Shown: positions 31,813 to 63,860, counted from the first letter of the stretch. The stretch: DNA of 63,860 nt from Candidatus Nanoarchaeia archaeon (GCA_035289005.1 DATDYN010000017.1:1-63860); one strand, 5' to 3'. Translations and numbers: made by a program. The notes: generated from the sequence alone by a model not told the origin.

Positions 31813-31913
31813 AAGGTGGTTGTAGTGGAGTTCTTTTTTATATTTTTGGAAAGCTATTTAAACGCCTGAAACCATATCATTTTCTTGCAAGAAAGCGGCC
31901 TTTAGGGGTGTTC

Positions 31914-37926: not shown

Positions 37927-38004
37927 CAAAAATCCGCCTGCCAAGGCGAGGAGCGTAAAGCCTCGGCCTGAAGGCCGAGGATAGCTCCGAGCGGCGGATT
38001 TTTG
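37927..38004. repeat. 78-nt palindromic element (CAAAAATCCGCC ... GGCGGATTTTTG)
   Basis: 12-nt perfect terminal inverted repeat. Internal hairpin GCCTCGGCC-TGAA-GGCCGAGG. It is homologous to an expanded 186-nt copy at 54172-54357. Confidence 0.65.
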
Positions 38005-38118
38005 TTACGATACCTTGAATCGCATTATTTGTTGCAGCTTTATCCTTCTGATTCCTAAAATCAGAAATGGGATTGAGATTGACAATCCTTAAATACCTGT
38101 CTCATAAAGCTATCATCC

Positions 38119-38778
38119 ATGAACTATTCAGCAAATTGGAAGATCGCAATCATCCTTGTTTTCGGAATAATATTCTCCCTAATTTCTACATTATTCTTTC
38201 TGAATCGTACGGATATGTCAGGAATAATCATCACAGGGATGGCGACTAATTCCTCTCAGGGCATAGTCAATCTCACTCTTGTCTCAAGCATAGCTATCGC
38301 GCTCTCAGTCACCGCAGTGGATTTCGGTACAGGCTATGTCACTATGGGTTGTTCGAAATGCAGTCTTCATACCCCTAGCGTCATCGAGAATGAGACTTGT
38401 TGTTCAGGATTCAGCTCTCCTGCAAACGGGCTTGTGCTTGAGAACGTAGGCAATCTTGCGGTGAATATCACGATGCAGGTTTTCGATAACGCGACCACTA
38501 TGATCGGCGGCGGAGATCTTGATTATGGAGGCCAAAACATGCCTGAATTCGAGGTTAATGTCACTGAGAAAGAGCTTGGAGCCTGCCCTAGCGGAGGATT
38601 GTATCCTGCCTGCAATAACACCTGGTGTCCTGTGAACGCTACGACTCTCACTTGGTGCGTCTCTTTGCTTCCTGACCAGAGCAAGGATGAGATAACCACA
38701 AATATACGCATAACAATCCCTGAGAATTCAAGGAAAGGGGAGCTGAACACCACTTTTATCTTTGTTGGCAACGCGTAA
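38119..38778 (+). CDS. N-terminally anchored beta-sandwich surface protein, paralogue A
   Basis: 219 aa. TM IAIILVFGIIFSLISTLFFL, then ITGMATNSSQGIVNLTL...VTAVDFGTGYV...LVLENVGNLAVNITMQV (ASH/PapD-like pattern), several Cys residues and many N-x-S/T. Paralogous to 39142-39798. Confidence 0.6.
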   Translation: MNYSANWKIAIILVFGIIFSLISTLFFLNRTDMSGIIITGMATNSSQGIVNLTLVSSIAIALSVTAVDFGTGYVTMGCSKCSLHTPSVIENETCCSGFSSPANGLVLENVGNLAVNITMQVFDNATTMIGGGDLDYGGQNMPEFEVNVTEKELGACPSGGLYPACNNTWCPVNATTLTWCVSLLPDQSKDEITTNIRITIPENSRKGELNTTFIFVGNA

Positions 38779-38920: not shown

Positions 38921-39145
38921 ATGAGAGAAGATATTTCGAACAAGACCGTGGTCATACTTCTGATATTGACTATTCTTATTGCTGTGAGCGGGACTCTTCT
39001 TGTCCTTGATAAAGCGGAACAGGTCAAGTCAGGGCAGAGTTCTGAAAGGCTGACTGCCCAATCATATCCTATAGGCACTGTTAAGGTTTCGGTGACCTCT
39101 CCTCCTGCACAAGGCAACCCCGCTGATCCAAGGGGTTCTCAATGA
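38921..39145 (+). CDS. Small N-terminally anchored protein (74 aa)
   Basis: MREDISNKTVVILLILTILIAVSGTLLVL resembles the N-termini of both neighbours. The stop overlaps the next start (ATGA). Confidence 0.45.
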   Translation: MREDISNKTVVILLILTILIAVSGTLLVLDKAEQVKSGQSSERLTAQSYPIGTVKVSVTSPPAQGNPADPRGSQ

Positions 39146-39798
39146 GTGAGATGACCAATCGCACTATCGCTGTGCTTCTCATATTTGGGATAGTCTTCTC
39201 TCTTGTTGCCACTCTTGTAAGCCTTAACCGGTTGTCGAATATTGATCGTTTCGGCATTACTGGATTGGTCACTAATACCACTTCCGGGTATGTCAATGCT
39301 TCAGTCACTTCAAGAGTCGCTGTTAATCTTACTCTTGCCGCAGTTGATTTCGGAACAGGGTATGTGGGGATGGGATGCAATAATTGCACGATTGATACTC
39401 AAGGTGGAAGCAATGGCGCTGCCTGTTGTGCTAATTTCCTGACTACTCAGAAAGGGCTTGTGATAGAGAACACAGGCAACACTTATCTCCAGATCGATGT
39501 CAATTTCAGCAAGAACGCGAGCGAGTTCATAGGCGGCACAGTCTCTGTCGCTAAATTCATGATGCTTGTTGTCCAGAACGATTCCGCGAGCTGCCATACT
39601 TTAGGAGCGACATGGTCTAGCGGCTATGCGAATGTGCCGATATATAACACTGGCGAGTCTGCCGGTCTTGTCTGCAATGTCCTTTCTCCGAATGCGGCGA
39701 ATGACAGCATAAGGCTGCATATCAATATCACGATCCCTGATAACGCCCCTTCAGGCGATAAGAACGCTTCTGTCTGGGTGACAGGCACAGGATTGTGA
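39142..39798 (+). CDS. N-terminally anchored beta-sandwich surface protein, paralogue B
   Basis: 218 aa. TIAVLLIFGIVFSLVATLVSL, ITGLVTNTTSGYVNASV...LAAVDFGTGYV...LVIENTGNTYLQIDVNF. A T8 run follows the stop. Confidence 0.6.
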   Translation: MSEMTNRTIAVLLIFGIVFSLVATLVSLNRLSNIDRFGITGLVTNTTSGYVNASVTSRVAVNLTLAAVDFGTGYVGMGCNNCTIDTQGGSNGAACCANFLTTQKGLVIENTGNTYLQIDVNFSKNASEFIGGTVSVAKFMMLVVQNDSASCHTLGATWSSGYANVPIYNTGESAGLVCNVLSPNAANDSIRLHINITIPDNAPSGDKNASVWVTGTGL

Positions 39799-40179
39799 AT
39801 CTTCCCTCTTTTTTTTAGGTATATTAATCGATCTTAAGCAATGCCACAGGATCTTTCTTTCAGGTAATTTTTCCGGTTCTGTAGAAAGTAATATGTTGCT
39901 GTCGGTGCCGCGTCTCAGTCTCTAACTGAGGCAGATTCTTTTCCCCTAGGCATGGTGATGGGAATCTGGTTCCCAAAAACGCATTCACGATGCATTTTTG
40001 CGATGTTCGGAAATGTCGAAGACTGCTGTCTTCGAACATGCTCAGAAATAGCCCTGCCGATTCCCGAGATGTGCATAACACAGCTTCGGCGACCTAATTC
40101 AAGTATCCCTCAAAGAATCCAATAAGGATATCTTGCTCTCTACAAAGCTAATTCTTCCGCAAGATTTATATGACCTTGA

Positions 40180-44674: not shown

Positions 44675-46363
44675 ATGATGGTCTCAGGAAGAGAGAAGAA
44701 GTCAAGGACAATGATGTTCGCCTTCATGGCTGCATTATTCGCTTCTTTTTTGATGATAGATGTCATGATATTCAATTCTGGAAAGGAGCTGGATCCTGGG
44801 TTCATGACTGGGAAAGCCACTCAGACAGTAGGCTCAGTCAGTGTCTGCATCAACAAGCCTCCGACAATCTCTTTCTCATGCAGCAATGCGGTAATAGATA
44901 CGTTATATTCTTGCGATATAGACGCGTTGACAGACAGTGATCAGAATGTCATTCTTTTCGATAATTCAAGCTTCTTTGACATCAATCCTTCCACAGGGAT
45001 GATATCTTTCACTCCGCTGAGCAGCCATAATGGCACTTCAAGGATCAATATAACCGCTAAAGACAATAGCTCTTGCGGCAATAATGTCGCTTCAGCGGAA
45101 TTTGTCCTGAATGTGAGCGGCGCTGTCCCGATAGCTTGCGGAGATAATTCATGCCATCAGTCAGAAGATTGCAGTTCTTGCGCAACAGACTGCGGCAGCT
45201 GCGTTGTGAGCGCAATCGGCGCAAGAGGAAGCAGGGGATTGACTGTAATTCCAGGAAATACCTTCTCTATTAATGTTGATGCAATAAAAGTCCATCTTAT
45301 CCAGGGAGAGTCTTTGCAGCAATCTTTCGCAATAACTAATATTGGAGAGGCGCAACTCTCATTCACTCTTAATCTTCTGCCGGCATTCTCTTTTATAACC
45401 ATTGATCCGAAGATATTTGTTTTGAGTAAAGGCGAGTCGCAGGATATACTCGCGTTATTCGTGATAGATGACAATCTCAAACCCGGGGTGTATGTCGGAG
45501 AGTTGATTGTCAAGGTATTTCCTTCAAAGGGGAGAATGATAAAGAAATCCATTCCTGTAATTGTTGAAGTTGAATCCAGCAAGATGCTGAAAGATGTCAC
45601 TGTGGAGTTTTCTTCTGAATTATATGAATTATTCCCTGGAGAAGAGTTGAGCGGCCAGGTCACAATATCTTCGCGCAGATCGGGCATTCCAATTGACGCT
45701 GAGATCGAGTATATTCTCAAGGATCTGAGGAATTCGGTCATAATCCGTGAGACAGACCATATCACTCTGACAGATCAAGCATCAACACTGAAGAAAATTC
45801 GACTTCCTGACCAGATTGCTGAAGGACAGTATGTTTTTGTTGTGCAGATTAGGGTAGGGGAGGATATAGCCGTCTCATCAAAGGTATTCCGCGTCTCTAA
45901 TAAGAAGGAAAGAGTGATTGAAGAGGCCACAATCATTGCTGAGCGTTCAGCGCAGAATAATTTCATAATTCTTGTTGTGGCAGTCTCTGCGCTCGCAATA
46001 GCTGGAGCGGCAGTCTTCTTCACTCACAGGCGCAGCCTGTTGAGGCTCGAGAATGAGCAGAAGCAGAAGATAAAGGAAGGGATTGAGGCGTTTGCGGTGG
46101 AGTACAAGCATGACATGGATGAATTGCGGCAGGCGCTCTCTGTAAGCTCTGTGCATGAGGCGGAACAAGATGTTGAGGCTTATCTTCTCAAGCTTGAATG
46201 GTATGTCGAGGAAGTCCTTGGCAAAGGGTTCCATCCTGATCAGGTAAGGACGCATCTTAAGGCGCACGGATGGAGTGAAGCGCATATCGAACGCGCGTTG
46301 ATGAATGTGAAGCGCAAGATGATGGATAAGCGCGTTGATGATCTCAAGAAGATGGTGAAATAA
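44675..46363 (+). CDS. Surface protein: cadherin-like/'putative Ig' domain, Cys-rich knot, PapD-like domains, C-terminal TM and cytoplasmic tail
   Basis: PPTISFSCSNAVIDTLYSCDIDALTDSDQNVILFDNSSFFDINPSTGMISFTP; CGDNSCHQSEDCSSCATDCGSC; LQQSFAITNIGEAQLSFTLN; TM FIILVVAVSALAIAGAAVFF; tail with GFHPDQVRTHLKAHGWSEAHIERAL. Confidence 0.6.
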   Translation: MMVSGREKKSRTMMFAFMAALFASFLMIDVMIFNSGKELDPGFMTGKATQTVGSVSVCINKPPTISFSCSNAVIDTLYSCDIDALTDSDQNVILFDNSSFFDINPSTGMISFTPLSSHNGTSRINITAKDNSSCGNNVASAEFVLNVSGAVPIACGDNSCHQSEDCSSCATDCGSCVVSAIGARGSRGLTVIPGNTFSINVDAIKVHLIQGESLQQSFAITNIGEAQLSFTLNLLPAFSFITIDPKIFVLSKGESQDILALFVIDDNLKPGVYVGELIVKVFPSKGRMIKKSIPVIVEVESSKMLKDVTVEFSSELYELFPGEELSGQVTISSRRSGIPIDAEIEYILKDLRNSVIIRETDHITLTDQASTLKKIRLPDQIAEGQYVFVVQIRVGEDIAVSSKVFRVSNKKERVIEEATIIAERSAQNNFIILVVAVSALAIAGAAVFFTHRRSLLRLENEQKQKIKEGIEAFAVEYKHDMDELRQALSVSSVHEAEQDVEAYLLKLEWYVEEVLGKGFHPDQVRTHLKAHGWSEAHIERALMNVKRKMMDKRVDDLKKMVK

Positions 46364-47567: not shown

Positions 47568-50183
47568 TCATTTCTCCTCTCTCACGAGAGCCGGAATATT
47601 CCTGTAATAGAGATACCAATCTGGCAGATTCGGCAGTTCGTTCAATGATGATGATTTTGCGTTCATCCTTATCCCTATCCCCAGCATGTCGAATGCTCCT
47701 GCGCAGGCCACATTGCCATTATCGAGCGTGAAACAGGCATTGTAACTGTTGCCTTTTGCTATGCTTATAGAGGTCACTCCCTGCAATGGCCTTATGCTTT
47801 TGGTCTTGATCTCGTCCTGGGTTGTGTCAATAGCAGCTACTGTTGTTGGTCGTTGATTATAAAAGTCAGTGGCGTAAGGTTTAGGATTGCCCTCTCCAGT
47901 GCCTAGCTGCCCATAACCATTATGACCCCAGCAGACTGCAGTCTTGTCAGTCTTTATCGCGCAGGAAGACTGCGCTCCTGCTGTCACGAAAGTGTATTTG
48001 TCCCCATTGCTCGCTATTTTAGTGGCATAAGGTCTGGCAATGGCCGTTGTTCCGTCTCCGATCTGGCCATACCTGTTAGCTCCCCAGCAGTATATCTCTC
48101 CTTCATTATTCTGATTCTTCAAAGCGCAGAAATGCGATATCCCTGCGGCGATCATCGTTATGCCTGTGATATCATTATTATTGGCGTCCTTGACATAGTG
48201 AGGTGTGAAATAGCTTTCATAAGTGCCTTTTACCTTGCCTTTATTATCGCCGAGTTCTCCAGTATAACCGCTGTCACTAGTCTCTCCAGATTTTTCTGTG
48301 ATTCCCCAGCAGGCAACTTTTCCTCCTTTGAGCGCGCAGAAAGTGCTAAAGCTTCCGACTATGGACTGGACTTCGGTCAATCCTTGCTTATTATTTCCCT
48401 GCACATCACCAATGTCATGCACTTTCAAAGGTTTTATATTTCCGCAGAGATTGTCTTTGCAAGCCACATTGCAAGGAGGCCAATAATCATGTGCGGTTGC
48501 ATTATACGCTGCAGCTGCTTTTAGTCCGTCTATATCTCCCGCAAGTCCAACCATATATCCTTGATAGCATGATTTCATAGCGTTCTGTATCTTTTCAGGG
48601 GTATCAGCGTCTGGAAACATCAGTTCTCCAGTCTCAGGAGATCTTGGCTTTACGTTCTTACTCATAAACTGTGTGAAAAGATCGGATTCAGGGCAGCCGT
48701 AGAATCCGTCTCCATTTGCTGTCCCTTCATCCGCTTCAAACCTGCAGTGGCTTGCGCCGAAGCATTCAACACCACCCTCAGGTCTTAAAATACAACCAAC
48801 CCAGTTAACGATGAATGCCAGATCCTTGATGTTTGTCTGCGGACCAAAACCTAAAAGAAGATTAGACGGCGCTGAGTAGTCTTTGCTGCTGACCTTCACA
48901 TTGATTCCAGACAGCAGGCTTTTCCCCCAGCACCACGCTTCATTATTGGTCATGAGAACGCAATTGCCGCCTATAGGGTTGGAGACGACATCACGCACTG
49001 TCTTTCCTGCGGGAAGAAGGGGGATATTTGAAGGAAGGATCCCGTCCGAAGTCCTATACGCGTCCTTTAGTTCAGCAGACATGCTGATGGTTGGAGAGCC
49101 GACATAATTATAGATATCATTCCCCCAGCATTTTAGCACGCCATTATCAATAGCGCAGGCGTTAGAATACCCTAATTTGACATTTGTCAGGCCATCAGCG
49201 ACTTTGTAATCGCACATGTTAGCCGCGCGCCAGTCGATCCATTGGTTATCGACGCAGCGAAGAGAGTTGATATTGCTCGCGAATTTTCCTCCGATACGGT
49301 TTCCGTTGAATATGACAGAATCGCATTGGCTTGCCTTATCATTGCCGTTCCAGGCTCTCGGATAGCCGCCGCATTGTGAAGTGTCAGGGACAGCTTCGAC
49401 CCATTTCCAGTTGCTGAAATTCTTTGGTTTAAGCTGCATCCATTGCAGTGTTGTGGGCACTGGAGGAGTTGAAGTCGCTGGGATGAGGGCTCTGCAGAAA
49501 TAGAATTTCCCAGAGGAATAGTGGCAGGTATTGGCAGTTGACGCGTTATTGCTTGTGCATCCGTTCACGGGCAGTTCAATTACTTCCTTGCATTTCAATC
49601 CTGGCTTGAATTCTTTCTCGCAGGAAGCTGTCTCGCAAGTTGTAGCGGGTTTGCAGTCTGCAGAGCATGTCTGTGGCGTCTCATCAGCGTTGCATGTTCC
49701 GTCGCCGCAGCTGATTGTGGGGGGAGGAGTCTCTCCAGTCACTGTGAAGCTGCCCTCTTCCCATCTGCACTGCCAGCCGCTGCCTACTGTCTTCGGATCG
49801 CAGATTCTGAGCCTGTAGTATACTTTTCCGTCGCTTCCAGGCATTGTCTGCGCTTGTGTTATCGTGAAAGTCATTGTCCCTCTCTTCCATGAAGGATTGT
49901 TCGCTAAACTATCCCCCCCTGTCAGGAGAACGCTTCCTTTGGAGATCATGCTGCCTTGGTCGTTCTTCACCCGCACAAAGGCTTTCTTGAACACTGCTGT
50001 CTGGCCTGTCACTGTTATCGTTATAGTATTTGAGAACGCGCCATTTATGATAGGGATATCTGTCGTTGGGGCAGAGTAAGAGAACGCTTCACCTACTGGC
50101 TGGCAGCCTGACAGGATTGATGGAATTATCATAATAATTAAGGCCAGCAGAATAATGTTTATGTTCTCTCTTTTTTTCGCCAT
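47568..50183 (-). CDS. Secreted/lipobox RCC1-repeat (beta-propeller) protein
   Basis: N-terminal IIMIIPSILSGCQ (lipobox-like LSGC), Cys motif SCGDGTCNADETPQTCSADC, and RCC1-type repeats (CWGHNGYGQLGTG, CWGANRYGQIGDG, CWGNDIYNYVG, CWGITEKSG). Confidence 0.8.
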   Translation of the reverse strand: MAKKRENINIILLALIIMIIPSILSGCQPVGEAFSYSAPTTDIPIINGAFSNTITITVTGQTAVFKKAFVRVKNDQGSMISKGSVLLTGGDSLANNPSWKRGTMTFTITQAQTMPGSDGKVYYRLRICDPKTVGSGWQCRWEEGSFTVTGETPPPTISCGDGTCNADETPQTCSADCKPATTCETASCEKEFKPGLKCKEVIELPVNGCTSNNASTANTCHYSSGKFYFCRALIPATSTPPVPTTLQWMQLKPKNFSNWKWVEAVPDTSQCGGYPRAWNGNDKASQCDSVIFNGNRIGGKFASNINSLRCVDNQWIDWRAANMCDYKVADGLTNVKLGYSNACAIDNGVLKCWGNDIYNYVGSPTISMSAELKDAYRTSDGILPSNIPLLPAGKTVRDVVSNPIGGNCVLMTNNEAWCWGKSLLSGINVKVSSKDYSAPSNLLLGFGPQTNIKDLAFIVNWVGCILRPEGGVECFGASHCRFEADEGTANGDGFYGCPESDLFTQFMSKNVKPRSPETGELMFPDADTPEKIQNAMKSCYQGYMVGLAGDIDGLKAAAAYNATAHDYWPPCNVACKDNLCGNIKPLKVHDIGDVQGNNKQGLTEVQSIVGSFSTFCALKGGKVACWGITEKSGETSDSGYTGELGDNKGKVKGTYESYFTPHYVKDANNNDITGITMIAAGISHFCALKNQNNEGEIYCWGANRYGQIGDGTTAIARPYATKIASNGDKYTFVTAGAQSSCAIKTDKTAVCWGHNGYGQLGTGEGNPKPYATDFYNQRPTTVAAIDTTQDEIKTKSIRPLQGVTSISIAKGNSYNACFTLDNGNVACAGAFDMLGIGIRMNAKSSSLNELPNLPDWYLYYRNIPALVREEK

Positions 50184-50230: not shown

Positions 50231-50462
50231 GGCGATATCCTGAATCTTTAACTGAGAATTTTTTTGATGTTGCTTAAATGAATGACTTATAATGGAATTG
50301 GGGATGCCTATATGTAATGGCAAGAAATAACGAAAATCACCTATTGTGATCGTCAAGAATATTTACATTTTTGAGCGTGCTCGGAAATCACTTTGCGGAT
50401 TTCCGACATTTCGAGATTGAAAATCAATGCATCGATTTTCAATCGTGATTCAGGACAGAGCC
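50231..50462. mobile_element. MITE-like element, copy d, composite (interior replaced or invaded by short hairpin repeats)
   Basis: Termini GGCGATATCCTGAATC (50231-46) and GATTCAGGACAGAGCC (50447-62). The interior carries GAGCGTGCTCGGAAATCACTTTGCGGATTTCCGACAT (about 50373-50409) and the palindrome GATTGAAAATCAATGCATCGATTTTCAATC (50415-44). Confidence 0.6.
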
Positions 50463-51252: not shown

Positions 51253-51852
51253 ATGGCTGAAGAATCAACTTTCAGAGGCGCTATAAGCTTTCTGGAGAAA
51301 ATAGGGGTGTATGATGTCGTTCTCCCTTTCATACTCATATTCACGATAGTCTTCGCTATCTTCGAGAAGACTAAAGTCCTTGGGGTAGAGAAGATCGGCG
51401 GGCATGAGTACAGCAGGAAAGACCTGAATGCCACAGTCGCGTTCGTCATAGCTTTCCTTGTCGTCGCGTCTTCAAAGCTGGTTACTATAATCAATGAATC
51501 ACTAGGGAAGATAGTCCTTCTGCTGCTCATCTCAATATGCTTCCTCCTCTTGATAGGCAGCTTCTATCGCTATGATGAGAAAGTCTTCCTTGAAGGATGG
51601 TGGCGCAAGGCGTTCATGGCTTTCATGTTCATAGGAGTCATACTCATATTCTCTGACGCGGTCAAGACTGACAGCGGAGAGAGCTGGCTGGAGTCTTTCT
51701 GGAATTTCCTGGTCAATAACTGGCAGGCAGGCTGGACAGCCTCTCTTATACTTGTGATCTTCATAGCCATCTTTATCGGCTATATTGTCGGCCCGAAGCC
51801 TGGCGGAGAGCACAAGGAAAAGAAAGAAGGCAATGGCGATCATGGGCATTGA
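51253..51852 (+). CDS. 4-TM membrane protein, tandem paralogue 1 of 3
   Basis: FRGAISFLEKIGVYDVVLPFILIFTIVFAIFEKTKVLG; ~4 TM segments; Gly/His-rich tail. Confidence 0.6.
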   Translation: MAEESTFRGAISFLEKIGVYDVVLPFILIFTIVFAIFEKTKVLGVEKIGGHEYSRKDLNATVAFVIAFLVVASSKLVTIINESLGKIVLLLLISICFLLLIGSFYRYDEKVFLEGWWRKAFMAFMFIGVILIFSDAVKTDSGESWLESFWNFLVNNWQAGWTASLILVIFIAIFIGYIVGPKPGGEHKEKKEGNGDHGH

Positions 51853-51967
51853 GGCGTTTTAGCGATATCAAATAGCAATATTAATAAGAGGCATATGTTT
51901 TTAGAGGATAAATGATCGGCGAAACCTAAGTCAATAATTCAGGATATTCGCAAAGGAAGGTGAAGAT

Positions 51968-52573
51968 ATGGCTTCAGCATTGACAGATTCGTTCAGCAGA
52001 GGACTCCAGTTATTGATTGATATAGGGTTAGCAGATGTCATGCTCCCTTTCATGCTCATCTTCACGCTTGTCTTCGCTATCATGATGAAGACTGAGGTTC
52101 TTGGAAAGAACAAGCGATACAACGGAGTGCTCGCGCTTGTTCTCGCTCTTGCCACAGTCATCCCTCATGTCACAAATTCTTATCCTCCTGGGTCTGATGT
52201 TATTGATATCATAAATATCGCTTTGCCGAATGTTTCTGTGGTTGTTATCGCGATTATCATGCTCGTGCTGCTTGTAGGGATCTTTGCTGGAGGGCAGTTA
52301 ACCACAGTCGCGACAGCCCCTGTAGTGCTGATATTCTTGGTGATAATAATATACATCTTCGGAGCTGCCGCAGCCTGGTGGTCAATCCCTGAATCTCTGA
52401 GTTTCATGAAAGATTCTGACACTCAGGCATTGCTGATAGTCATAGCAGTGTTCGCGATAATCATCTGGTTCATAGTCGGAGAAAAGAAGCCTACTGCTGG
52501 ACAAGGGCTTTTCCATTCATTAGGGGAATTGTTTAAGCCAGGAGGAGGCGCGTCTCCACCGCATCATCCTTAA
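51968..52573 (+). CDS. 4-TM membrane protein, tandem paralogue 2 of 3
   Basis: FSRGLQLLIDIGLADVMLPFMLIFTLVFAIMMKTEVLG aligns with paralogue 1. Same length class (201 aa). Confidence 0.6.
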   Translation: MASALTDSFSRGLQLLIDIGLADVMLPFMLIFTLVFAIMMKTEVLGKNKRYNGVLALVLALATVIPHVTNSYPPGSDVIDIINIALPNVSVVVIAIIMLVLLVGIFAGGQLTTVATAPVVLIFLVIIIYIFGAAAAWWSIPESLSFMKDSDTQALLIVIAVFAIIIWFIVGEKKPTAGQGLFHSLGELFKPGGGASPPHHP

Positions 52574-52594
52574 TAAGTATATTGACAGACACTC

Positions 52595-53167
52595 ATGGCA
52601 ACGATACTTGACGCTGGACTGCTGCAGAATTTCAGCATATTCTTCTCTTTCGTGTTCGTCATCGCGATAGTCTACGGAATCCTCACATTCACCAAGGTAT
52701 TCGGCGAGAGCAAAGGCCTGCAGGTTCTGATAGCTTTCATCGTCGGTCTTATGGTATTGTTAGTCCCTGACGTCAATAGGCTGATAACGACAATGGTGCC
52801 CTGGTTCACCACATTTTTCGTCTTCATCCTGTTCTTGCTGATAGCCTACAAGATCTTCGGCGCCACAGACGCTGACATAATGGGCGCGCTGAAAGAGAAC
52901 TCGACAATAGTCTGGGTTGTAGGAATAGTGTTTGTCGTCATACTTATCGGGTCTTTCGGTTCAGTATACGGGCAGAAATTCCTTGCAGGACAGCAGGACA
53001 TAACTTCAGGAAGCGCTGCAGGCAGCGAAGGGACAGGAACTCCGGACTATTCATCTAATGTTGCGGCGACGTTCTTCCATCCTAAGGTCTTAGGGATGCT
53101 CTTTATACTCATCCTTGGAGTGTTCACTGTGGCGATACTTGCGGTCAATACCGCCGGTGGGCATTAA
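52595..53167 (+). CDS. 4-TM membrane protein, tandem paralogue 3 of 3 (more divergent)
   Basis: LLQNFSIFFSFVFVIAIVYGILTFTKVFGESKG. Same topology and length (190 aa). Confidence 0.55.
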   Translation: MATILDAGLLQNFSIFFSFVFVIAIVYGILTFTKVFGESKGLQVLIAFIVGLMVLLVPDVNRLITTMVPWFTTFFVFILFLLIAYKIFGATDADIMGALKENSTIVWVVGIVFVVILIGSFGSVYGQKFLAGQQDITSGSAAGSEGTGTPDYSSNVAATFFHPKVLGMLFILILGVFTVAILAVNTAGGH

Positions 53168-53260
53168 TTCCTTCATGTTACCTCTCACTCAGGATATTAG
53201 GGATCAATCACCTCTATGCTTAAGAAATAAGCAGAAAAACAGATCACTCAAATATCCCGA

Positions 53261-53944
53261 TCATTTGCTTTTGACCTTTTGAGCGGCCTTGACGCGCGCA
53301 GTGATCCTTGAGAGCTCATTGACATTGTCGACGAATCCTGGAAGTATCTTCTGGAATACCTTCTCCAAAGCCTGGATGTCAGTCCCCAGATTGACTATCC
53401 CTTTATCATAATCGGAGATCTTGCCGAGTATTCCCTCATGCAGCTTGTCAAAAGAGCTTCTCAGATCGTCAACTTTCTGCTCAAGCTTGCTAAGGCGGGA
53501 TTCCACAGTGTCTTTCCAGTCAAGAACCCTGTTCACGCTCTCTATGAGGTCTGTCCATTTCTCATCGATTATGGCTTCAGCGATCTCATGCATCCTTCCT
53601 TCATTGCTGGATTGAGGCAGCCCCATATCAGGTATTCCTGAAGGATGCAGCTGAGGTATTCCCTGTTGCTGGAAAGAAGGCATCTGTTGTTCCATGATCT
53701 CACCTTTTTGATGTTCTGGAGGCTTCTGTTCAAGCACTCCTTCCTTGAGGTCTGCCTGATTTATCGCGCGGCTGATATTGTCCATGCCATAGCCTGCGCG
53801 CTGCAATGCCTCAAGTATCTGGTTGTTGCTGAATCCCTGCGCGCGCATGGTCAGTACGCGGTCGGTAGGGACGTCTGTCGGCCCTGCCGGGTTAGGCGGT
53901 ATCGCTCTGTTCTGTGTGAATATATCAGTCATCACTGCCATCAC
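53261..53944 (-). CDS. Coiled-coil protein with N-terminal 'G-x4-Q-I..L...G-Y/W' helical module
   Basis: QGFSNNQILEALQRAGYGMDNISRAI near the N-terminus, a Q/P-rich linker, and a C-terminal heptad-like region (VESRLSKLEQKVDDLRSSFDKLHEGILGKISDYDKGIVNLGTDIQALEKVFQKI), loosely reminiscent of FlaC-type coils. Confidence 0.5.
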   Translation of the reverse strand: MMAVMTDIFTQNRAIPPNPAGPTDVPTDRVLTMRAQGFSNNQILEALQRAGYGMDNISRAINQADLKEGVLEQKPPEHQKGEIMEQQMPSFQQQGIPQLHPSGIPDMGLPQSSNEGRMHEIAEAIIDEKWTDLIESVNRVLDWKDTVESRLSKLEQKVDDLRSSFDKLHEGILGKISDYDKGIVNLGTDIQALEKVFQKILPGFVDNVNELSRITARVKAAQKVKSK

Positions 53945-54025
53945 GAACCTGCCTTGATATATTGAATGTCAGTAAAATTGTTGTTTGTTGTCACGAACAA
54001 AAGACAGTGAGCTTTTTAAAGATTG

Positions 54026-54357
54026 TGATGCGCGAGGCGATGTCCTGGACATCAGTTTCTCATTAAAAATTGCGCTGGGTGTGATACCCCTACCATTTAT
54101 GGTGCAATGTCGGAAATGTATTGCATTTCCGAGCATCCCGAAAATCTTTTGATTTTCGCGATTTTTAATTTCGAAAATCAGCCTTTTGGCGAGGAGCGTA
54201 AAACCTCGGGCTTTATGTCGGAAATCGACAAGGTGATTTCCGAGCATCCCGAAAATGCGCACATTTTCGCGAGCCCGAGGATAACGAAAATCACCAAGAG
54301 GGGATTTTCGGGATGGAAAATCCGAGATTTTCCATAGCTCCGAGCGGCTGATTTTCG
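54026..54357. repeat. Nested array of hairpin repeats filling a 437-bp intergenic gap
   Basis: Collapsed MITE end GGCGATGTCC-T-GGACATC (about 54032-54053). Two copies of ATGTCGGAAAT-N10-ATTTCCGAGCATCCCGAAAAT-N9-ATTTTCGCGA (54107-61, 54215-72). Outer palindrome CGAAAATCAGCC...GGCTGATTTTCG (54172-54357). Confidence 0.8.
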
Positions 54358-54381
54358 TTATATACTATCAAAATCTCCTCT

Positions 54382-54867
54382 TCATTTCTGCTGTTCCTGC
54401 TGCTCAATCATCTCGTCAATCTTCTCCTGCACTATCTCTCGTATCAGTTTATCCGCTTCTGTGCGGGTGACATACTGCAATGGCTCCAGGAAATCTATGT
54501 ATTTCTGCAGCACTTTCAATTCATCTGCTTTCGCGCAGTCCATGAGCTCTTTGACCATGAGTCTTGCTTTCCCTCGCAAGTCCTCAATGCTTCTGCGCAT
54601 CTCGATAAGGTCAGAGCTTGTCGCTCTGGTCTCCTGGGATAATGTCTTGCTCTGCTTGAGCATGTTCTGCTCTATCAGCTGTATCTTCTTGCGCAGTCCG
54701 TCATAGCGCTCTTCAATAAGCCTTAGCCTGCGGTTGAGGTTAGCTATCTGAGAAGTGATATCTGAAGAAGGCGCCGCAGCCATCTCCGGCTTGTGCTTGA
54801 ATATGCCGCCGCTCTCTTTTTTCCCCGCTCCTTGCTGACCGAACAGGGGAGGTGTAGCTTCTGCCAT
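54382..54867 (-). CDS. Coiled-coil protein (161 aa)
   Basis: ITSQIANLNRRLRLIEERYDGLRKKIQLIEQNMLKQSKTL...IEDLRGKARLMVKELMD; no enzymatic motif. Confidence 0.5.
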   Translation of the reverse strand: MAEATPPLFGQQGAGKKESGGIFKHKPEMAAAPSSDITSQIANLNRRLRLIEERYDGLRKKIQLIEQNMLKQSKTLSQETRATSSDLIEMRRSIEDLRGKARLMVKELMDCAKADELKVLQKYIDFLEPLQYVTRTEADKLIREIVQEKIDEMIEQQEQQK

Positions 54868-55217
54868 GATTAAGAGCGAGAGAGATTTACTGATATATAA
54901 AGGTATGTTGCTGTGGGGTGAAGGCTTGGATTTCTAATGTCTTTCTCCGCATCCAAGGCAAACATTTAAGAAGGGAAGATGATATATTATGTATTAAGTA
55001 TATAATATACTATGAAATATATCAAATATATAAGATAATATGTTTTAGGCAGTTAGCTCAAGACCTGGCCGGCATCGCCACCCCCAAGCAAGGCGCAACT
55101 CAACCACCCCCACCATTTTCATTGCGGCAGAGATAGCTCTTCGGAAGAACTATGCCATAAAGCGTTTCCAGAAAAGAAAGACTGATAAATGCGGCAGACA
55201 ATGCAGTGCAGACGCTG

Positions 55218-55370
55218 ATGAAAAAACCTATAAGCGCGACTATCGAGAAAGAACTGCTCGACTGGATAGACAGCAAGCTGGCTGAAGGCTCGAGGTACAG
55301 GAATAAATCCCATATCATCGAGACAGCGCTCGAGATGATGAAGCAGGAAGAGAGCAAGAAGAAGAGATGA
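55218..55370 (+). CDS. Ribbon-helix-helix (CopG/MetJ-like) protein, 50 aa (below the ORF-track cutoff)
   Basis: My own translation: MKKPISATIEKELLDWIDSKLAEGSRYRNKSHIIETALEMMKQEESKKKR. It shows the beta-strand/helix/helix RHH pattern and ends 49 nt upstream of the ATPase gene. Confidence 0.6.
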   Translation: MKKPISATIEKELLDWIDSKLAEGSRYRNKSHIIETALEMMKQEESKKKR

Positions 55371-55419
55371 TCCCATCAAGGGCGGATAATCAGGCAATCA
55401 CCAATGAAAAGAGAGGTGC

Positions 55420-57702
55420 GTGTTGGCAGATTCGTGGAATTATGAAGTCATAAGGGAAGGGGAAGATGTAATCATAAAGGTTGATTGCGAGAGGATACTC
55501 CGCATCCCTTCCATAGAGGACGATCCTGTGTACATGGCGAGGATCATCGAGACATTGGCTGAGCTTCCTACCGCGACAAAGATACTTCTTGTGCAGAAGC
55601 GCGATTATGAGTATGATTATGACCAGGTAAAGCTCCTTGTCGAGATCGCCCAGCTCTATCTCAAGCTCGCATCTCAGAAAGAATTCTTCTCTTATGAAGC
55701 GCTGAACCTCAATGGCAAGTGCGCGCATCTGGCAGGAGAGATGTACACTGCGCTTCAATCACTTATCTTCCGCCAGCTGAAGGAAGATCCGATATCCGCT
55801 TTTGTCACGATGAAGCGCATGATGAGGGATGAGCGCATTCTTGAGCAGAAAACTGTGGATGAAGCTTCGCTTGCCTGCAGGAAGAGGTATATCTCTCTGC
55901 TTTCGCACATGCTAAATCTGCTGGGCAAGACAGCCCTGCTCGCTCTGGCCAGGCCTCATCTTGAAGGCCTTGAGACTGGGAACCGTGACGTCTATCGGGA
56001 GATATTCCATCCGATCATAAAGCCGGACTTCATGTTCACGAAGATCATGGCGAATTATCCTCCTGACGGAGAAGAGATCGACAATTACACTATAGGCGAT
56101 GACACTGAAGTGACAATATTCCGCTTCCCTAATTCAGTGAAATATCTTTATCATCTCTCTCCTCCGGAATTCAACCTAAGCGAGGAAGAGTATGACTTGC
56201 TTGACATGGCGCGCACCATCATGGCAGAGCACAAGCCTTCTCGTGAGGAGTTCGTCAATCCGCGAAGGATGAGGGAGGTATTCTCGAATGTCGGCAGGGA
56301 CCTCATCCAGGAGATAGCCAACAATAAAGGGCTGACTCTCACGCAGAAGCAAGTCCTGAAGATGACCAGCATACTTGTCAGGTACACTATAGGTTTCGGC
56401 CTTATCGAAGTGCTGCTACAGGATGACAAGATCCAGGACGTCTCTATCAATTCGCCAATGGGCAGGATCCCAGTGTTCGTAGTGCATGGAGATTACGCTG
56501 ATTGCGACACTAACATCATAATCACTGTCCCTGAAGCTGAGTCTTGGGCGTCAAAATTGCGCATGATTTCCGGAAGGCCTTTGGATGAAGCAAATCCAGT
56601 GCTTGATACAGAGATCCAGATACCCGGAGCTGACGCAAGAGTCGCCGTAGTCTCAGAGCCTCTCGACCCTACAGGATTGGCGTTCTCTTTCCGACGCCAC
56701 AGAGACAAACCCTGGACACTGCCCTTGTTCATCAAGCAGAAGATGATAACTTCTTTCGCCGCAGGATTGCTCAGTTTCATGGTTGACGGCACGCGCGCGA
56801 TGCTCATCGCGGGAACGCGCAGTTCAGGTAAATCCTCATTCTTGACTGCCCTGATGATTGAGATAATGCGGAGGTATAGGATAATAACGATAGAGGACAC
56901 TCTGGAACTCCCTTCCGGAGGGATGCGTGATCTGGGATTCAATATCCTATCGATGAAAGTCGCCTCAAGCATGACTCGCGGCTCTTCAGAAGTTAGCGCG
57001 GCTGACGGCATAAGGACAACACTGCGTCTTGGGGATTCCTCATTGATAATCGGCGAAGTCAGGAGCAAAGAGGCCGTAGCGCTCTATGAAGCGATGCGCA
57101 TAGGCGCTGCCGCGAATGTAGTCGCAGGGACGATCCATGGCGATTCCCCTTACGGAGTCTTCGACCGTGTAGTTAACGATATCGGAGTGCCGAAGACCTC
57201 TTTCAAAGCCACAGATGTCATAATCGTCGCCAATCCGATCAGGAGCGCTGACGGCATCCATCGCAATAGGCGCGTCACGCAGATCACTGAAGTCAGGAAG
57301 CATTGGGAGAATGACCCAGTGATTGAGGGAGGATTTGTCGATCTCATGAAGTACGACGCGAAAAATGACGCCCTGAACATATCTGACGACCTGATAAACG
57401 GAGACAGCGAAACTTTGAAAGCCATCGCGTCCAATATCCCTGATTTTGCAGGAAACTGGGATGCTCTCTGGAAGAATATAGAGCTGAGGGCGAAATGCAA
57501 GCAGGCGCAGGTTGATTACGCAGTCCAGGCCAACAATCTGGATTTGCTTGAAGCCGAGTTCACTATAGAGTGCAATGACCAATTCCATCTCATCTCTGAC
57601 AAGATCAAGAGAGAGACTGGAAAGCTTGATCCGGAACGCATATGGTTCGAGTGGGAAGTATGGATAAAGAGGGAGATAAAGAAGCGGCAGGCAAGCGCTT
57701 GA
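55420..57702 (+). CDS. Type II/IV secretion-family ATPase (GspE/FlaI/PilB superfamily) with long N-terminal region
   Basis: Walker A IAGTRSSGKSSFL (about aa 465 of 760), Asp box IITIEDTLEL, Walker B SLIIGEVRSKEA, His box AGTIHGDSP. GTG start preceded by GAGAGG. Confidence 0.9.
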   Translation: MLADSWNYEVIREGEDVIIKVDCERILRIPSIEDDPVYMARIIETLAELPTATKILLVQKRDYEYDYDQVKLLVEIAQLYLKLASQKEFFSYEALNLNGKCAHLAGEMYTALQSLIFRQLKEDPISAFVTMKRMMRDERILEQKTVDEASLACRKRYISLLSHMLNLLGKTALLALARPHLEGLETGNRDVYREIFHPIIKPDFMFTKIMANYPPDGEEIDNYTIGDDTEVTIFRFPNSVKYLYHLSPPEFNLSEEEYDLLDMARTIMAEHKPSREEFVNPRRMREVFSNVGRDLIQEIANNKGLTLTQKQVLKMTSILVRYTIGFGLIEVLLQDDKIQDVSINSPMGRIPVFVVHGDYADCDTNIIITVPEAESWASKLRMISGRPLDEANPVLDTEIQIPGADARVAVVSEPLDPTGLAFSFRRHRDKPWTLPLFIKQKMITSFAAGLLSFMVDGTRAMLIAGTRSSGKSSFLTALMIEIMRRYRIITIEDTLELPSGGMRDLGFNILSMKVASSMTRGSSEVSAADGIRTTLRLGDSSLIIGEVRSKEAVALYEAMRIGAAANVVAGTIHGDSPYGVFDRVVNDIGVPKTSFKATDVIIVANPIRSADGIHRNRRVTQITEVRKHWENDPVIEGGFVDLMKYDAKNDALNISDDLINGDSETLKAIASNIPDFAGNWDALWKNIELRAKCKQAQVDYAVQANNLDLLEAEFTIECNDQFHLISDKIKRETGKLDPERIWFEWEVWIKREIKKRQASA

Positions 57703-57764
57703 TGACTTCCTATTCAATCTCGCATTGACCTCTTGTGCGCAGCGCGCTTCAATCACGCTTATCA

Positions 57765-60098
57765 ATGGCAAAAAAAGAGGATAGCTCAGAAGAAGCGCCG
57801 ATGAAGAACGAAGGAGGAAGGATCGGCCAGTCAGAAGTAGACCAATTGATGCAGAAATACCGTGAACGCCTTGATTCTCAGCTGAATGTCTCACGGCAGC
57901 AGCTTTCTGAGAGTGAGGATGAGGAAGGGACAGCCTCAAGGGAGTACAGCGATTTCAAGAAAGAGTATATGCCGACGCATCTCTCATTCTATGAGAAAGC
58001 CTGCAATCTCAGCGAGAGCGTGATGAAGATAAGCCCTGACAAGAAAAAGCTCCAAGAATACCAGGAAGCTATAGAGGTCTGCCATCTCAATATCACTCCT
58101 ACAGGCGCAGTCTCTTTCGCGTTCCTAGCGGCGATATCAGTCATAGTCTTCGGAGGGTTGGCATCTTTCGCGATATTCAGCTCAGTGTTCTTCATAATAT
58201 TCTTTCTGGCTGTAGGCGCATTGCTGATCCAGCCTTTGAGCACTCTGCCGATGTTCTTATCCACTCAGTGGCGCATGAAGTCTAGCAATCAGATGGTCAT
58301 CTGCATATTCTATATTGTCACTTATATGAGGCATACCTCTAATCTTGAGCTCGCGATAAAGTTCGCTTCAGACCACCTCTCTGCTCCGCTCTCTCTTGAT
58401 CTCAAGAAAGTCCTTTGGGATGTCGAGACTGAGAAGTACGAGTCTCTCAAGGAATCCCTTGACACTTATCTCCTGTCCTGGAAGAAATGGAACATGGAGT
58501 TCGTCGAGGCCTTCCATCTGATAGAATCCTCATTGTTTGAGAGCTCTGAAGACAGGAGGCTTTCTCTGCTGGACAAATCATTGAGCGTCATCCTTGAAGA
58601 GACTTACGAGAAGATGTTGCATTATGCGCAGGATCTCAAGACCCCTATGACTATGCTGCACATGCTCGGTATCATCATGCCGATCCTGGGATTGGTCATA
58701 TTGCCGCTCATGGTCAGCTTTGTCTGCGAAGTCAGATGGTATCACTTAGCGGCGTTCTATAATCTCGCGCTCCCTCTGGGGATATATTACTTGGGCAAGA
58801 AGATCCTCACGACAAGGCCGACAGGTTACGGCGACACAGACATCTCTGAAGAGGATCCTGAACTCAAGAAATACCGGAATTACATATTCAAGCTAGGCAC
58901 CGCTAAAGTCTCGGTCTCTCCGGCATTGATAGCAATAACTTTCGGAGTAATATTCCTTCTCATAGGCATCAGCCCTCTGATACTGCACGCTTTCACTTCA
59001 AGCACTGATTTCGATATCATCTGGAGAGCTGATCCTGGAAGCGATGAGAGCAAGATAGGGATAACAAACACTCTGCAGGATCCGACAGCGCTGTTCTCAC
59101 TTTTAGGGTATCTGGAATCCCAAGGCTGTCCTGTAGGGGAGGCCGGCGCTGAAGGCTTGGGAGATATTGTCGGGCCTTTCGGGTTTGGAGCCGCATTGCT
59201 GAGCCTTTTCTTCATAATCGGGTTAGGGGTGAGCATAGGGCTGTACTTCAAGCATAAATCCTCGAATGTGATAAAGATAAGGGAGGACGCTAAAAAGCTT
59301 GAGAAGGAATTCGCTTCAGCGCTCTTCCAGCTAGGAAACCGTCTAGGCGATGGATTGCCCGCGGAGATCGCTTTCGGCAAAGTTGCGGAAGTCATGGAGG
59401 AGAGCATCTCAGGCAATTTCTTCAGGATAGTGACTTCCAATATAACCCGTCTTGGCATGAGCGTTGAGCAGGCGATTTTCGATCCTAAGATCGGCGCGCT
59501 CGTGAATTATCCCTCTAATGTGATCGAGAGCTCGATGAAAGTGCTTATCGAGAGCTCAAAGAAAGGGCCTTTGATAGCGGCGCAGGCGCTCATCAGCATC
59601 TCTGACTATATCAAAGAGATCCATCGCGTTGATGAACGCCTTAAAGATTTGCTGTCAGAGACGATATCCTCAATGAAATCGCAGATCACTTTCATGACTC
59701 CAGCGATAGCTGGCATCGTCATAGGCATCACAAGCATGATCTCAGGTATAATCGGAAATCTTGGCATCCAGCTTCGCAGCCTCGGCTCTGGAGGGGCTGC
59801 TGGCGCAGGGTTGGGCAACATGACTGACATACTTTCTATGTTCGGAGAGGGAGTGCCCACTTTCTATTTCCAGATAATTGTCGGAGTATATGTCGTAGAA
59901 ATAATATTCATCCTCACTATAATAGTCAATGGGATAGAGAATGGCGCGGATTCTCTGAATGAGAAATATCTCTTAGGGGTCAATATGGTGAGGAGCACGA
60001 TATCCTATGTGTTGATAAGCCTTGGGGTGATGCTAGTGTTCAATCTTGTGGCGGGCAGGATACTGAGCGGATTCCTTTCAGGCGGCGGAGTGAGTTGA
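57765..60098 (+). CDS. FlaJ/PilC/TadC-like polytopic platform protein
   Basis: About 9 TM segments and two cytoplasmic helical modules resembling T2SSF repeats (SNLELAIKFASDHLSAPLSLDLKKVLWDV; EFASALFQLGNRLGDGLPAEIAFGKVAEV...LGMSVEQAI...YPSNVIESSMKVLIESSKKG). ATG at 57765 (MAKKEDSS) is preferred over the non-ATG start at 57735. Confidence 0.65.
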   Translation: MAKKEDSSEEAPMKNEGGRIGQSEVDQLMQKYRERLDSQLNVSRQQLSESEDEEGTASREYSDFKKEYMPTHLSFYEKACNLSESVMKISPDKKKLQEYQEAIEVCHLNITPTGAVSFAFLAAISVIVFGGLASFAIFSSVFFIIFFLAVGALLIQPLSTLPMFLSTQWRMKSSNQMVICIFYIVTYMRHTSNLELAIKFASDHLSAPLSLDLKKVLWDVETEKYESLKESLDTYLLSWKKWNMEFVEAFHLIESSLFESSEDRRLSLLDKSLSVILEETYEKMLHYAQDLKTPMTMLHMLGIIMPILGLVILPLMVSFVCEVRWYHLAAFYNLALPLGIYYLGKKILTTRPTGYGDTDISEEDPELKKYRNYIFKLGTAKVSVSPALIAITFGVIFLLIGISPLILHAFTSSTDFDIIWRADPGSDESKIGITNTLQDPTALFSLLGYLESQGCPVGEAGAEGLGDIVGPFGFGAALLSLFFIIGLGVSIGLYFKHKSSNVIKIREDAKKLEKEFASALFQLGNRLGDGLPAEIAFGKVAEVMEESISGNFFRIVTSNITRLGMSVEQAIFDPKIGALVNYPSNVIESSMKVLIESSKKGPLIAAQALISISDYIKEIHRVDERLKDLLSETISSMKSQITFMTPAIAGIVIGITSMISGIIGNLGIQLRSLGSGGAAGAGLGNMTDILSMFGEGVPTFYFQIIVGVYVVEIIFILTIIVNGIENGADSLNEKYLLGVNMVRSTISYVLISLGVMLVFNLVAGRILSGFLSGGGVS

Positions 60099-63128: not shown

Positions 63129-63232
63129 ATCATCCCTCTTTTAGCCTTTGAAGGCGTTCGCCTGCTTTTAGCAGGTCTTTCCTGATTATCTCTCAGAAGC
63201 GTGATAGATTATTTAAATGTTGTGATGCGCGA

Positions 63233-63352
63233 GGCGTTATCCTGAATCTATAAATGAAGACTTTTTTGCCATAGCGATACAACTCTTCATTTAGTGGCTA
63301 AATCTTGGTTATAAGAAAGCGGTGGCAAAAAAGAGTGATTCAGGATAACGCC
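63233..63352. mobile_element. MITE-like palindromic element, copy e (perfect 16-bp TIRs)
   Basis: GGCGTTATCCTGAATC (63233-48) / GATTCAGGATAACGCC (63337-52). Internal CTTTTTTGCCA.../...TGGCAAAAAAG. GATGCGCG occurs at 63224-31 and at 63353-60. Confidence 0.75.
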
Positions 63353-63458: not shown

Positions 63459-63860
63459 TCAATCCACGCTCTCTTCCTCGACTGAAGAGTCGTCTATATC
63501 CTTATCGATCTCTTTTGCAGGCTCTTCAAAGGATTTGGCAGGCTGCTTTTCAGCTGCATGAGCATTGTGCGTTGCCTGTTGCGCGGCTTGCAAGGTCGCT
63601 GCCCCGACAACCGCCAATGTCCCGAACTTGCCAGTGCTGAGTTGAAGCTCTCCGTTCCATTCACCCACATAGCCGTTCTTTATCTCCACCTTGTCCCCTT
63701 TATTGACCTGCTCTATCTGCTCGTTCCATAAAGAGAGCTTGACCTGCCCTGTCTCGTCCTTGAGTATGGCGTTAGCGACTCTTCCGTCCTTGCCGAATTT
63801 TGAGAAAGTGCGCGGTTCCGCCTTGTCGACTATGTCCGCTATAAGGTTCACATTGCCCTG
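63459..63860 (-). CDS. OB-fold single-stranded-DNA-binding (RPA/SSB-like) protein with acidic tail; 5' end probably outside window
   Basis: VANAILKDETGQVKLSLWNEQIEQVNKGDKVEIKNGYVGEWNGELQLSTGKFGTL. The frame stays open to the window edge (..QGNVNLIADIV), so the listed GTG start may be internal. Confidence 0.75.
   Translation of the reverse strand, partial: QGNVNLIADIVDKAEPRTFSKFGKDGRVANAILKDETGQVKLSLWNEQIEQVNKGDKVEIKNGYVGEWNGELQLSTGKFGTLAVVGAATLQAAQQATHNAHAAEKQPAKSFEEPAKEIDKDIDDSSVEEESVD

Follow-up and report, generated by a model that had tools for sequence, protein, structure and literature searches.

A type-IV-pilus-style ATPase and membrane platform gene cluster, with lineage-specific neighbours, in a Woesearchaeal (DPANN) archaeon

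The window analysed here is a stretch of 63,860 nucleotides (nt) from Candidatus Nanoarchaeia archaeon (GCA_035289005.1 DATDYN010000017.1:1-63860), and the present report deals with the eight genes found between its positions 51,253 and 60,098. The cluster contains the type-IV-pilus-style ATPase and membrane platform genes (together, the engine) of a small symbiotic-type archaeon (Woesearchaeota, DPANN), accompanied by a ribbon-helix-helix (RHH) protein, two coiled-coil proteins (CC1 and CC2) and three membrane proteins (TM4_a, TM4_b and TM4_c). The annotation and organization of the cluster are provided in Table 1. The best matches of the ATPase, the platform and TM4_a were nearly all named Candidatus Woesearchaeota, Nanoarchaeota or Nanoarchaeia. 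In the databases the ATPase carries a generic name, and the platform, TM4, CC1 and CC2 proteins are listed as hypothetical proteins. Full-text literature searching found no description of the cluster, and the predicted secretion systems of archaea and the pilin islands of DPANN genomes that have been reported (PMC5898192; PMC6393860) are different from it. Gene neighbourhoods were counted over 80 related loci, and those with enough flanking DNA to judge are referred to as informative.

Table 1. Genes and intergenic features of the cluster, with positions counted from the first letter of the window (aa, amino acids; TM, transmembrane segments; AF2, AlphaFold2).
Feature	Position	Strand	Description
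TM4_a	51253-51852	+	199-aa polytopic membrane protein, about 5 TM; first of three ancient paralogues (hydropathy, AF2, 925 homologues)
TM4_b	51968-52573	+	201-aa paralogue; N-terminal signature in common with TM4_a; orthologue at the same position in 28 loci
TM4_c	52595-53167	+	190 aa; divergent third paralogue without the a/b signature; orthologue in 28 loci
CC1	53261-53944	-	Soluble coiled-coil protein; likely start ATG 53941; 28 loci
CC1-CC2 spacer	53945-54381		437 nt, direct and palindromic GATTTTCG/CGAAAATC repeats
CC2	54382-54867	-	161-aa soluble coiled-coil protein; divergent from the RHH-ATPase operon; 36 loci
CC2-RHH intergenic region	54868-55217		AT-rich; presumed common promoter/operator, a function that is inferred only
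RHH	55218-55370	+	50-aa CopG/ParD-like ribbon-helix-helix protein; presumed operon regulator
ATPase	55420-57702	+	760-aa secretion-superfamily ATPase; FlaI/TadA/GspE2-like core at about residues 293-650, conserved N- and C-terminal extensions
Platform	57801-60098	+	765 aa, about 9 TM; GspF/PilC/TadC/FlaJ superfamily; two cytoplasmic helical domains, variable beta-rich loop

The ATPase matched the Pfam family T2SSE (PF00437) over residues 419-604 with 53.4 bits (cut-off 24.9). Its Walker A motif (GTRSSGKS, residue 465), Asp box (IEDT, 491), Walker B motif (GEVR, 545) and His box (GTIHG, 570) were invariant or nearly so among 15 aligned homologues, and PF00437 was present in all of the top 120 homologues. 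The protein is a true member of the secretion superfamily, with intact catalytic boxes. Similarity to known proteins was limited to residues 293-650, and the closest solved relatives of this core were A. fulgidus GspE (2OAP, E 1.7e-29), CpaF/TadA (3e-21) and S. acidocaldarius FlaI (3e-15). The top NCBIfam model was that of the TadA family (TIGR03819), with 125.5 bits and a cut-off of 373 that was not reached, and the FlaI equivalog NF058587 gave 118 bits (E 5e-34), below its cut-off of 550. Since both curated scores are far under the cut-off, the ATPase belongs to the superfamily but to no curated equivalog. The N-terminal 290 aa are strongly conserved, with a mean column identity of 66%, and so are the C-terminal 110 aa across homologues; used as a profile, the N-terminal 295 aa found no match among PDB sequences.

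In two related genomes (L058 5035-8838 and L008 5908-9693) some 500 additional codons split the ATPase gene without loss of frame, exactly within the Asp box (IED^TLEL). The L058 insertion is identified as an intein with a homing endonuclease because its translation ends in ...VAHN, with T beyond the junction, and contains LAGLIDADG-like motifs. The evidence for the L008 insertion consists only of a split tblastn match at the position matching that of L058.

The open reading frame (ORF) of the platform opens with GTG at 57735, and its homologues, together with the 100% identical database protein P0001 (765 aa), begin at ATG 57801, which is most likely the start. The distance from the end of the ATPase gene is then 98 nt. 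No match to Pfam, NCBIfam or PDB sequences was obtained with either the single sequence or a 25-sequence profile. The AF2 model (25 homologues; pLDDT 75.8, pTM 0.73) has about nine TM helices and two cytoplasmic helical domains, together with a helical region on the cytoplasmic side at the N-terminus and a beta-rich loop that varies among homologues. A Foldseek search of the PDB matched the cytoplasmic domain to EpsF (2VMB, 3C1Q), OutF (5NBG) and PilC (2WHN) with probabilities of 0.89-1.0 and target TM-scores of 0.58-0.75 over 105-120 columns; the root-mean-square deviation was about 3 Å for EpsF/OutF and 5.3 Å for PilC, and the whole-query E-values were poor (0.7-2.5). Pfam T2SSF (PF00482) was matched by 7 of 10 remote full-length homologues, of which only P0390 passed (32.8 vs 25.2 bits) and the other six scored 17-25 bits. 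Six of the seven matching proteins aligned through their first cytoplasmic domain and one through its second. From the modelled fold and the remote homologues, the platform is taken to be a divergent protein of the GspF/PilC/TadC/FlaJ superfamily. Profile-profile comparison of its two halves detected no internal duplication at the low alignment diversity available (Neff 1.8). The platform adjoins a co-directional T2SSE ATPase in the window and in 69 of the 77 informative loci, the ATPase being absent beside it in eight loci with enough upstream DNA.

Median pairwise identities were computed over the same genome pairs for all proteins. They were 64% for the ATPase, 63% for a YchF-like GTPase and 59% for the platform, followed by the SSB-like OB protein (54%), RFC (50%), and GlyRS and translin (43% each); CC1 and CC2 had 43 and 33%, respectively. 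The engine is among the slowest-evolving proteins of these genomes. An exhaustive profile search placed the platform family at 1241 clusters at 50% identity, and at least 468 genomes encoded the platform when each GTDB species was represented by one genome, with the ATPase-platform pair confined essentially to Woesearchaeota/Nanoarchaeia. The pair is a slow-evolving and near-universal core of this lineage.

The RHH gene stops 49 nt upstream of the ATPase and encodes the strand-helix-helix pattern of about 45 aa that is typical of such regulators. Its product passed Pfam ParD (PF03693) marginally (21.5 bits, cut-off 21), remained under the cut-off of TIGR02606 (E 3e-5) and aligned over its full length to CopG (1B01) with an E-value of 0.46, which is not significant. 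The 23 aligned orthologues carry an invariant PISATI...RNKSH core and the gene is kept in 36 of the 80 related loci; no ParE-type toxin gene adjoins it.

With respect to the TM4 proteins, profile-profile alignment (hhalign) gave probabilities of 99.9% for a vs b, 99.2% for a vs c and 98.8% for b vs c, while pairwise BLAST of TM4_c against TM4_a or TM4_b was not significant; judged by their profiles, the three are true paralogues. The N-terminal signature is common to TM4_a and TM4_b only, TM4_c being far more divergent. TM4_a has five hydrophobic segments by hydropathy, in agreement with the helices of its AF2 model (about 5 TM), and its 925 homologues are all Woesearchaeota/Nanoarchaeota hypothetical proteins without a Pfam domain. 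In the AF2 model (pLDDT 70, pTM 0.38) the helices are confident and their packing is uncertain, and Foldseek returned no meaningful match for it. A low pTM would fit a protein that folds only within a hetero-oligomer, although it proves nothing. Two other identities for the TM4 proteins were dropped, that of a prepilin peptidase, as the consensus does not contain the second catalytic motif of GxGD type, and that of a relative of the platform TM region (hhalign probability 0.2%).

CC1 comprises a small N-terminal helical domain (UBA-like, weak), a Pro/Gln-rich linker and a conserved C-terminal coiled-coil of about 110 aa (29 sequences aligned), and CC2 is a helical coiled-coil protein (33 sequences aligned). 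No TM segments were found in either one. Searches of Pfam and PDB returned generic weak coiled-coil matches only and no FlaC_arch or FlaC/D/E signal, and no homology was detectable between CC1 and CC2 (hhalign probability 3%). Apart from nonspecific coiled-coil matches, neither they nor the TM4 proteins had relatives in Pfam, NCBIfam or the PDB. All are lineage-specific families.

The repeat-filled spacer between CC1 and CC2 is particular to this genome, measuring 437 nt as against a gap of about 50-250 nt in relatives, an excess put at about 400 nt. Its modules consist of the palindromic GATTTTCG/CGAAAATC and a 37-nt direct repeat with TTTCCGAGCATCCCGAAAAT. The sequence GATTTTCGNNAT, for which 0.3 occurrences are expected in the whole window, has eight matches there, six of them inside the spacer. 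The same repeat family was also observed at other intergenic sites (50327-50409, 37945-38007, 63212-63244, 39994-40013 and 10600-10760). The repeats had no match in Rfam and could be an element resembling miniature inverted-repeat transposable elements or repetitive extragenic palindromes, or a shared operator.

An earlier note on this DNA (hereafter, the original prediction) had described a GspE/FlaI-superfamily ATPase with four boxes and Walker A at about residue 465 of 760, an unusually long N-terminal region preceding its core, a 50-aa RHH ORF ending 49 nt before it, and two opposite-strand coiled-coil proteins separated by a repeat-filled spacer, all of which agree with the data above. 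The assignment of the platform to the T2SSF/FlaJ/TadC kind is likewise upheld by fold and remote homologues, but the proposed gap of no more than 65 nt is not compatible with the start at ATG 57801. In the same way, three tandem paralogues of about 200 aa are present, but they have about five TM segments instead of four and the signature attributed to all of them is found in the first two only. Among the profiles that the original prediction had pointed to, T2SSE matched the ATPase and the RHH profile matched marginally, while T2SSF did not match the platform itself and FlaC_arch matched neither CC1 nor CC2.

In attention to the above, we consider with moderate confidence that the block is a lineage-specific Woesearchaeal (DPANN, class Nanoarchaeia) variant of the archaeal type IV pilus engine, working with pilins supplied in trans. 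It is established what the ATPase and the platform are, that they are paired and that they are conserved, and the genes of the filament subunits most likely lie in another part of the genome. In the mechanism proposed, a hexamer of the ATPase would dock on the cytoplasmic domains of the platform, whose ATP-driven movements would extract pilins with a class III signal from the membrane and assemble them into a filament on the cell surface, by which the cell attaches to surfaces or to a host. The pilins would be trimmed by a FlaK/PibD-type peptidase that, like them, would be encoded elsewhere, and the RHH protein may regulate the divergent promoter region. More speculatively, CC1, CC2 and the three 5-TM paralogues could be lineage-specific accessories that surround the unusually large ATPase with a scaffold in the cytoplasm and a hetero-oligomeric anchor in the membrane; these would play a part similar to that of ArlX/ArlCDE or PilMNO without being homologous to them.

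In two genomes, L042 and L075, a platform orthologue (53-55% identical) has no ATPase beside it and faces, in head-to-head orientation, a syntenic operon of nine ORFs. About seven of the operon products begin with a short basic stretch, [KR][GAS] and a 20-residue hydrophobic segment (e.g., MKLKLKKGQTSEFIGITLLVIV and MKKKGSVFMTAFVIAVAIAIVII). Judged by this N-terminal pattern only, the operon would bear the hallmark of a major-plus-minor pilin operon. In another two loci (L028 4151-7035 and L060 5316-8189), a platform without an adjacent ATPase is preceded by MoxR (AAA_3), DUF58 and vWA/BatA genes and by the gene of a surface protein of about 1400 aa, in which Pfam recognised Ig domains in the L060 copy. 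MoxR and vWA genes are associated with type IV pili (PMC4858521). In addition, archaeal ATPase/TadC modules often lie apart from pilins and serve unlinked ones, and 'nanoarchaeal' ATPases without identifiable pilins have been described (PMC4858521). According to KEGG-based assignments, flaB and flaK occur in most Woesearchaeal metagenome-assembled genomes (MAGs) (PMC11606122; PMC5994134).

Several results weigh against this reading. A pattern scan of all ORFs with all start codons found no class III signal in the 63.9-kb window, in keeping with the original prediction, which had noted none in the block. It had also reported neither a prepilin peptidase nor an arlC-H/flaC-H-type set, and none was seen among the scanned window ORFs: Pfam searches of 38 of the 61 non-overlapping ORFs revealed no archaellin, pilin, A24 peptidase or ArlH. 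The only RecA/KaiC-like ORF of the window (31908-32678) is Rad51/RadB-like and about 23 kb off. Across the 80 related loci, the surroundings of the engine contain no conserved pilin, peptidase, ArlH or ArlF/G family. For the pilin-like proteins encoded in L042 and L075, Pfam gave no match and the other loci no relatives, and a search of JGI metagenome contigs for the pilin-like gene retrieved only the identical sequence on a 1.2-kb contig. Finally, the degree of conservation is atypical for platforms of adhesion pili, and a more central function would fit it too. Nevertheless, the step from a missing pilin to a non-canonical machine, which the original prediction had taken, is weakly supported. 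Unlinked pilins are normal in archaea (PMC4858521); the class-III-like operon of L042/L075, the MoxR/DUF58/vWA genes of L028/L060 and the reported flaB and flaK genes tell against the step as well.

It must be noted that large proteins, presumably surface proteins typical of DPANN genomes, are encoded elsewhere in the window. One of them (1719-7991, minus strand) has 2090 aa, with right-handed beta-helix/NosD repeats and a MopE-type metal-binding motif, and another (47568-50183, minus strand) has 871 aa, RCC1 repeats and an N-terminus that resembles a lipoprotein signal by eye. Many predicted surface proteins of this lineage present an N-terminal signal anchor followed, a few residues on, by an [IVM]TG motif (e.g., ...IITGMATN, ...GITGLVTN, ...EITGAVV and ...EITGRVV), which is probably a lineage-typical Sec cleavage region. 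It was observed in the window at 38119-38778, 39142-39798, 44675-46363 and 1719-7991, and in relatives at L028 20919-21272, L060 20448-20765, L073 4978-5220, L054 17506-17757 and L074 1308-9701.

The part of the preferred reading that concerns the accessories must be weighed against inherited gene order. It is a real possibility, which we rate below even chances, that the motor is of pilus type and the TM4 triplet and CC1/CC2 are unrelated neighbours retained by synteny only, an explanation that is compatible with a pilus engine and does not exclude it. The original prediction would have been refuted if these families never co-localised with such engines in related genomes, which is not what the loci show. 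The triplet and CC1 were found beside the engine in 28 loci, that is, in 28 of the 49 that hold at least 7 kb upstream, and CC2 in 36 of 80; in the opposite direction, with TM4 homologues of long contigs as the starting point, the full TM4x3 / CC1-CC2 / (RHH)-ATPase-platform order was displayed by 5 of 7 loci. The other 21 of the 49 informative loci have the engine without TM4/CC within 10 kb, L085 and L087 have TM4 genes without the engine, and in L007 the triplet has been relocated away from CC1/CC2. The genes of the block form three separate transcription units, and its conservation extends to unrelated genes. On the upstream side these are TGT, translin and two hydrolases, one of the MBL fold and one of the HD type, and on the downstream side SSB and GlyRS. 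Housekeeping genes among them are conserved in position to a similar extent (SSB in 41 of the 80 loci, GlyRS in 28 and translin in 20). Apart from the co-localisation itself, these observations favour synteny and speak against an accessory role.

Other observations are not easily explained by gene order. TM4-positive loci are interleaved with TM4-negative ones over the entire platform tree, and therefore the arrangement looks ancestral and repeatedly broken up. L083, one of the five loci with the full order reached from TM4, retains all eight genes of the block between flanks that are both different, and the TM4 and CC families are limited to the lineage of the engine itself. CC2 shares a divergent promoter region with RHH-ATPase and stays where CC1 and TM4 are gone (L022 and L027; also L009, L066 and L076, whose contigs are too short to judge). 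Owing to this promoter region and to its being retained more often than the others, CC2 would be the strongest accessory candidate among the neighbours. Given the comparable conservation of unrelated neighbours and the occurrence of TM4 without the engine, a functional link of TM4/CC to the engine is plausible, not shown. The original prediction was right in that the triplet and the coiled-coil pair are lineage-specific, and their role as parts of the machine remains inferential, as housekeeping neighbours are kept nearly as often.

Two of these neighbourhoods deserve a further description. The gene at 63459-63851 of the window (minus strand), downstream of the platform, encodes an SSB-like protein with a single OB fold (Pfam Ssb-like_OB). 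It is the most constant neighbour after the ATPase, is often followed by GlyRS and probably reflects housekeeping synteny. In L085 (10001-20582), a CheR-like methyltransferase gene, an ORF of 47 aa and a run of five or six genes for unknown proteins (250-375 aa), one of them matching SLT weakly, come after the TM4 triplet and putative CC genes, and this may be an insertion or a replacement; no ATPase or platform was found within 10 kb of this triplet.

A different view of the whole block would be that of a derivative of the type IV filament that works independently of pilins, an essential membrane machine of Woesearchaeota in which the 5-TM and coiled-coil proteins are integral, with surface-protein secretion, DNA uptake or a cell-cell contact structure as examples of its role. 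This is decidedly unlikely in our opinion, although the following points speak for it: the ATPase and the platform are better conserved than GlyRS, RFC and SSB, the large conserved extensions of the ATPase have no known relatives, pilin genes are not conserved near the engine in the 80 loci, many genomes link it with two novel accessory families, the platform often adjoins genes of giant surface proteins, and 41 of 80 loci have the gene of an SSB-like OB-fold protein downstream. This last gene, however, is on the opposite strand and travels with GlyRS, and so it looks like housekeeping synteny. Moreover, the platform orthologue adjoins a multi-gene class-III-signal operon in L042 and L075, pilins apart from their engine are normal in archaea (PMC4858521), and positive evidence for an alternative substrate is absent. 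In the boldest reading, the eight genes would constitute an undescribed, near-essential machine of Woesearchaeales that is derived from a type IV filament engine, has its own membrane and cytoplasmic scaffold and carries out a process central to the DPANN lifestyle instead of building an ordinary adhesion pilus. The process would be, for example, the building of host-cell contacts or the transfer of macromolecules across the envelope, and we regard this proposal as unlikely.

Typical FlaJ proteins are about 200 aa shorter than the platform, and Pfam does not recognise the latter; both facts count against an archaellum motor. Indeed, that the pair is a divergent ArlI/ArlJ driving swimming with the flaB archaellins reported in Woesearchaeota is very improbable, since, in spite of JGI naming several ATPase orthologues 'archaeal flagellar protein FlaI', the E-value of 5e-34 with the NCBIfam FlaI model and the report of flaB (highly expressed), flaH, flaI, flaJ and flaK in most Woesearchaeal MAGs (PMC11606122), the equivalog score is 118 vs 550 bits, the TadA-family model and A. 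fulgidus GspE score equal or better, CC1 and CC2 have no FlaC_arch match, and no ArlH, ArlF/G, ArlCDE/X or archaellin was found in the scanned window ORFs or conserved in the 80 loci.

Woesearchaeota and other DPANN archaea are abundant, uncultivated and thought to live attached to other cells. In this regard, the platform is one half of an engine that ranks among the best conserved in small and fast-evolving genomes, and it has been annotated merely as a hypothetical protein without any domain. Its recognition as a PilC/FlaJ-like protein would provide a function for thousands of database entries. The conserved extensions of the ATPase and the TM4, CC1 and CC2 families are targets for structure prediction, metatranscriptomics and cryo-electron tomography of enrichment cultures. 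If the accessory genes are truly parts of the machine, they would represent a new architectural solution in the type IV filament superfamily.

Compared with known systems, the pilus engine favoured here is closest to the archaeal type IV pili described by Makarova, Koonin and Albers (2016, PMC4858521), notably those of subclade 4F, which have the same operon pairing of an ATPase with a TadC/FlaJ-like protein and whose pilins are often unlinked too. Halobacterial 4F systems are accompanied by an intracellular coiled-coil protein (arCOG07564), and archaeal type IV pilus genes often have MoxR/vWA genes and small transcription regulators of unrelated families beside them (PMC4858521), in likeness to the present cluster. 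In contrast, the 290-aa N-terminal extension of the present ATPase is unlike the Cys-rich domain of 4F and is complemented by the 110-aa C-terminal extension, the platform escapes Pfam T2SSF, the 5-TM triplet and CC1/CC2 have no described counterpart, and the conservation is far above that usual for pilus components. The archaellum pair ArlI/ArlJ has an ATPase of the same superfamily and a platform that likewise has about nine TM segments and two cytoplasmic domains, and the presumed cytoplasmic coiled-coil proteins near the present motor recall the ArlX/ArlCDE ring. Nonetheless, the ATPase reaches only 118 of the 550 bits of the ArlI equivalog cut-off, CC1/CC2 are not FlaC/D/E-like by Pfam, and the scanned window ORFs included no ArlH, ArlF/G or archaellin. 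Among solved structures, A. fulgidus GspE (2OAP) and CpaF/TadA come nearest to the ATPase core (residues 293-650), and the platform cytoplasmic domain has its predicted fold in common with GspF/PilC. With respect to the Tad pilus, the ATPase scores 125 bits on the TadA model (cut-off 373) and has extra N- and C-terminal regions, and the cluster does not contain TadZ, Rcp genes or TadE/F pseudopilins. Whereas TadB and TadC are separate proteins in that system, the present platform would unite both T2SSF-like halves in one fused polypeptide.

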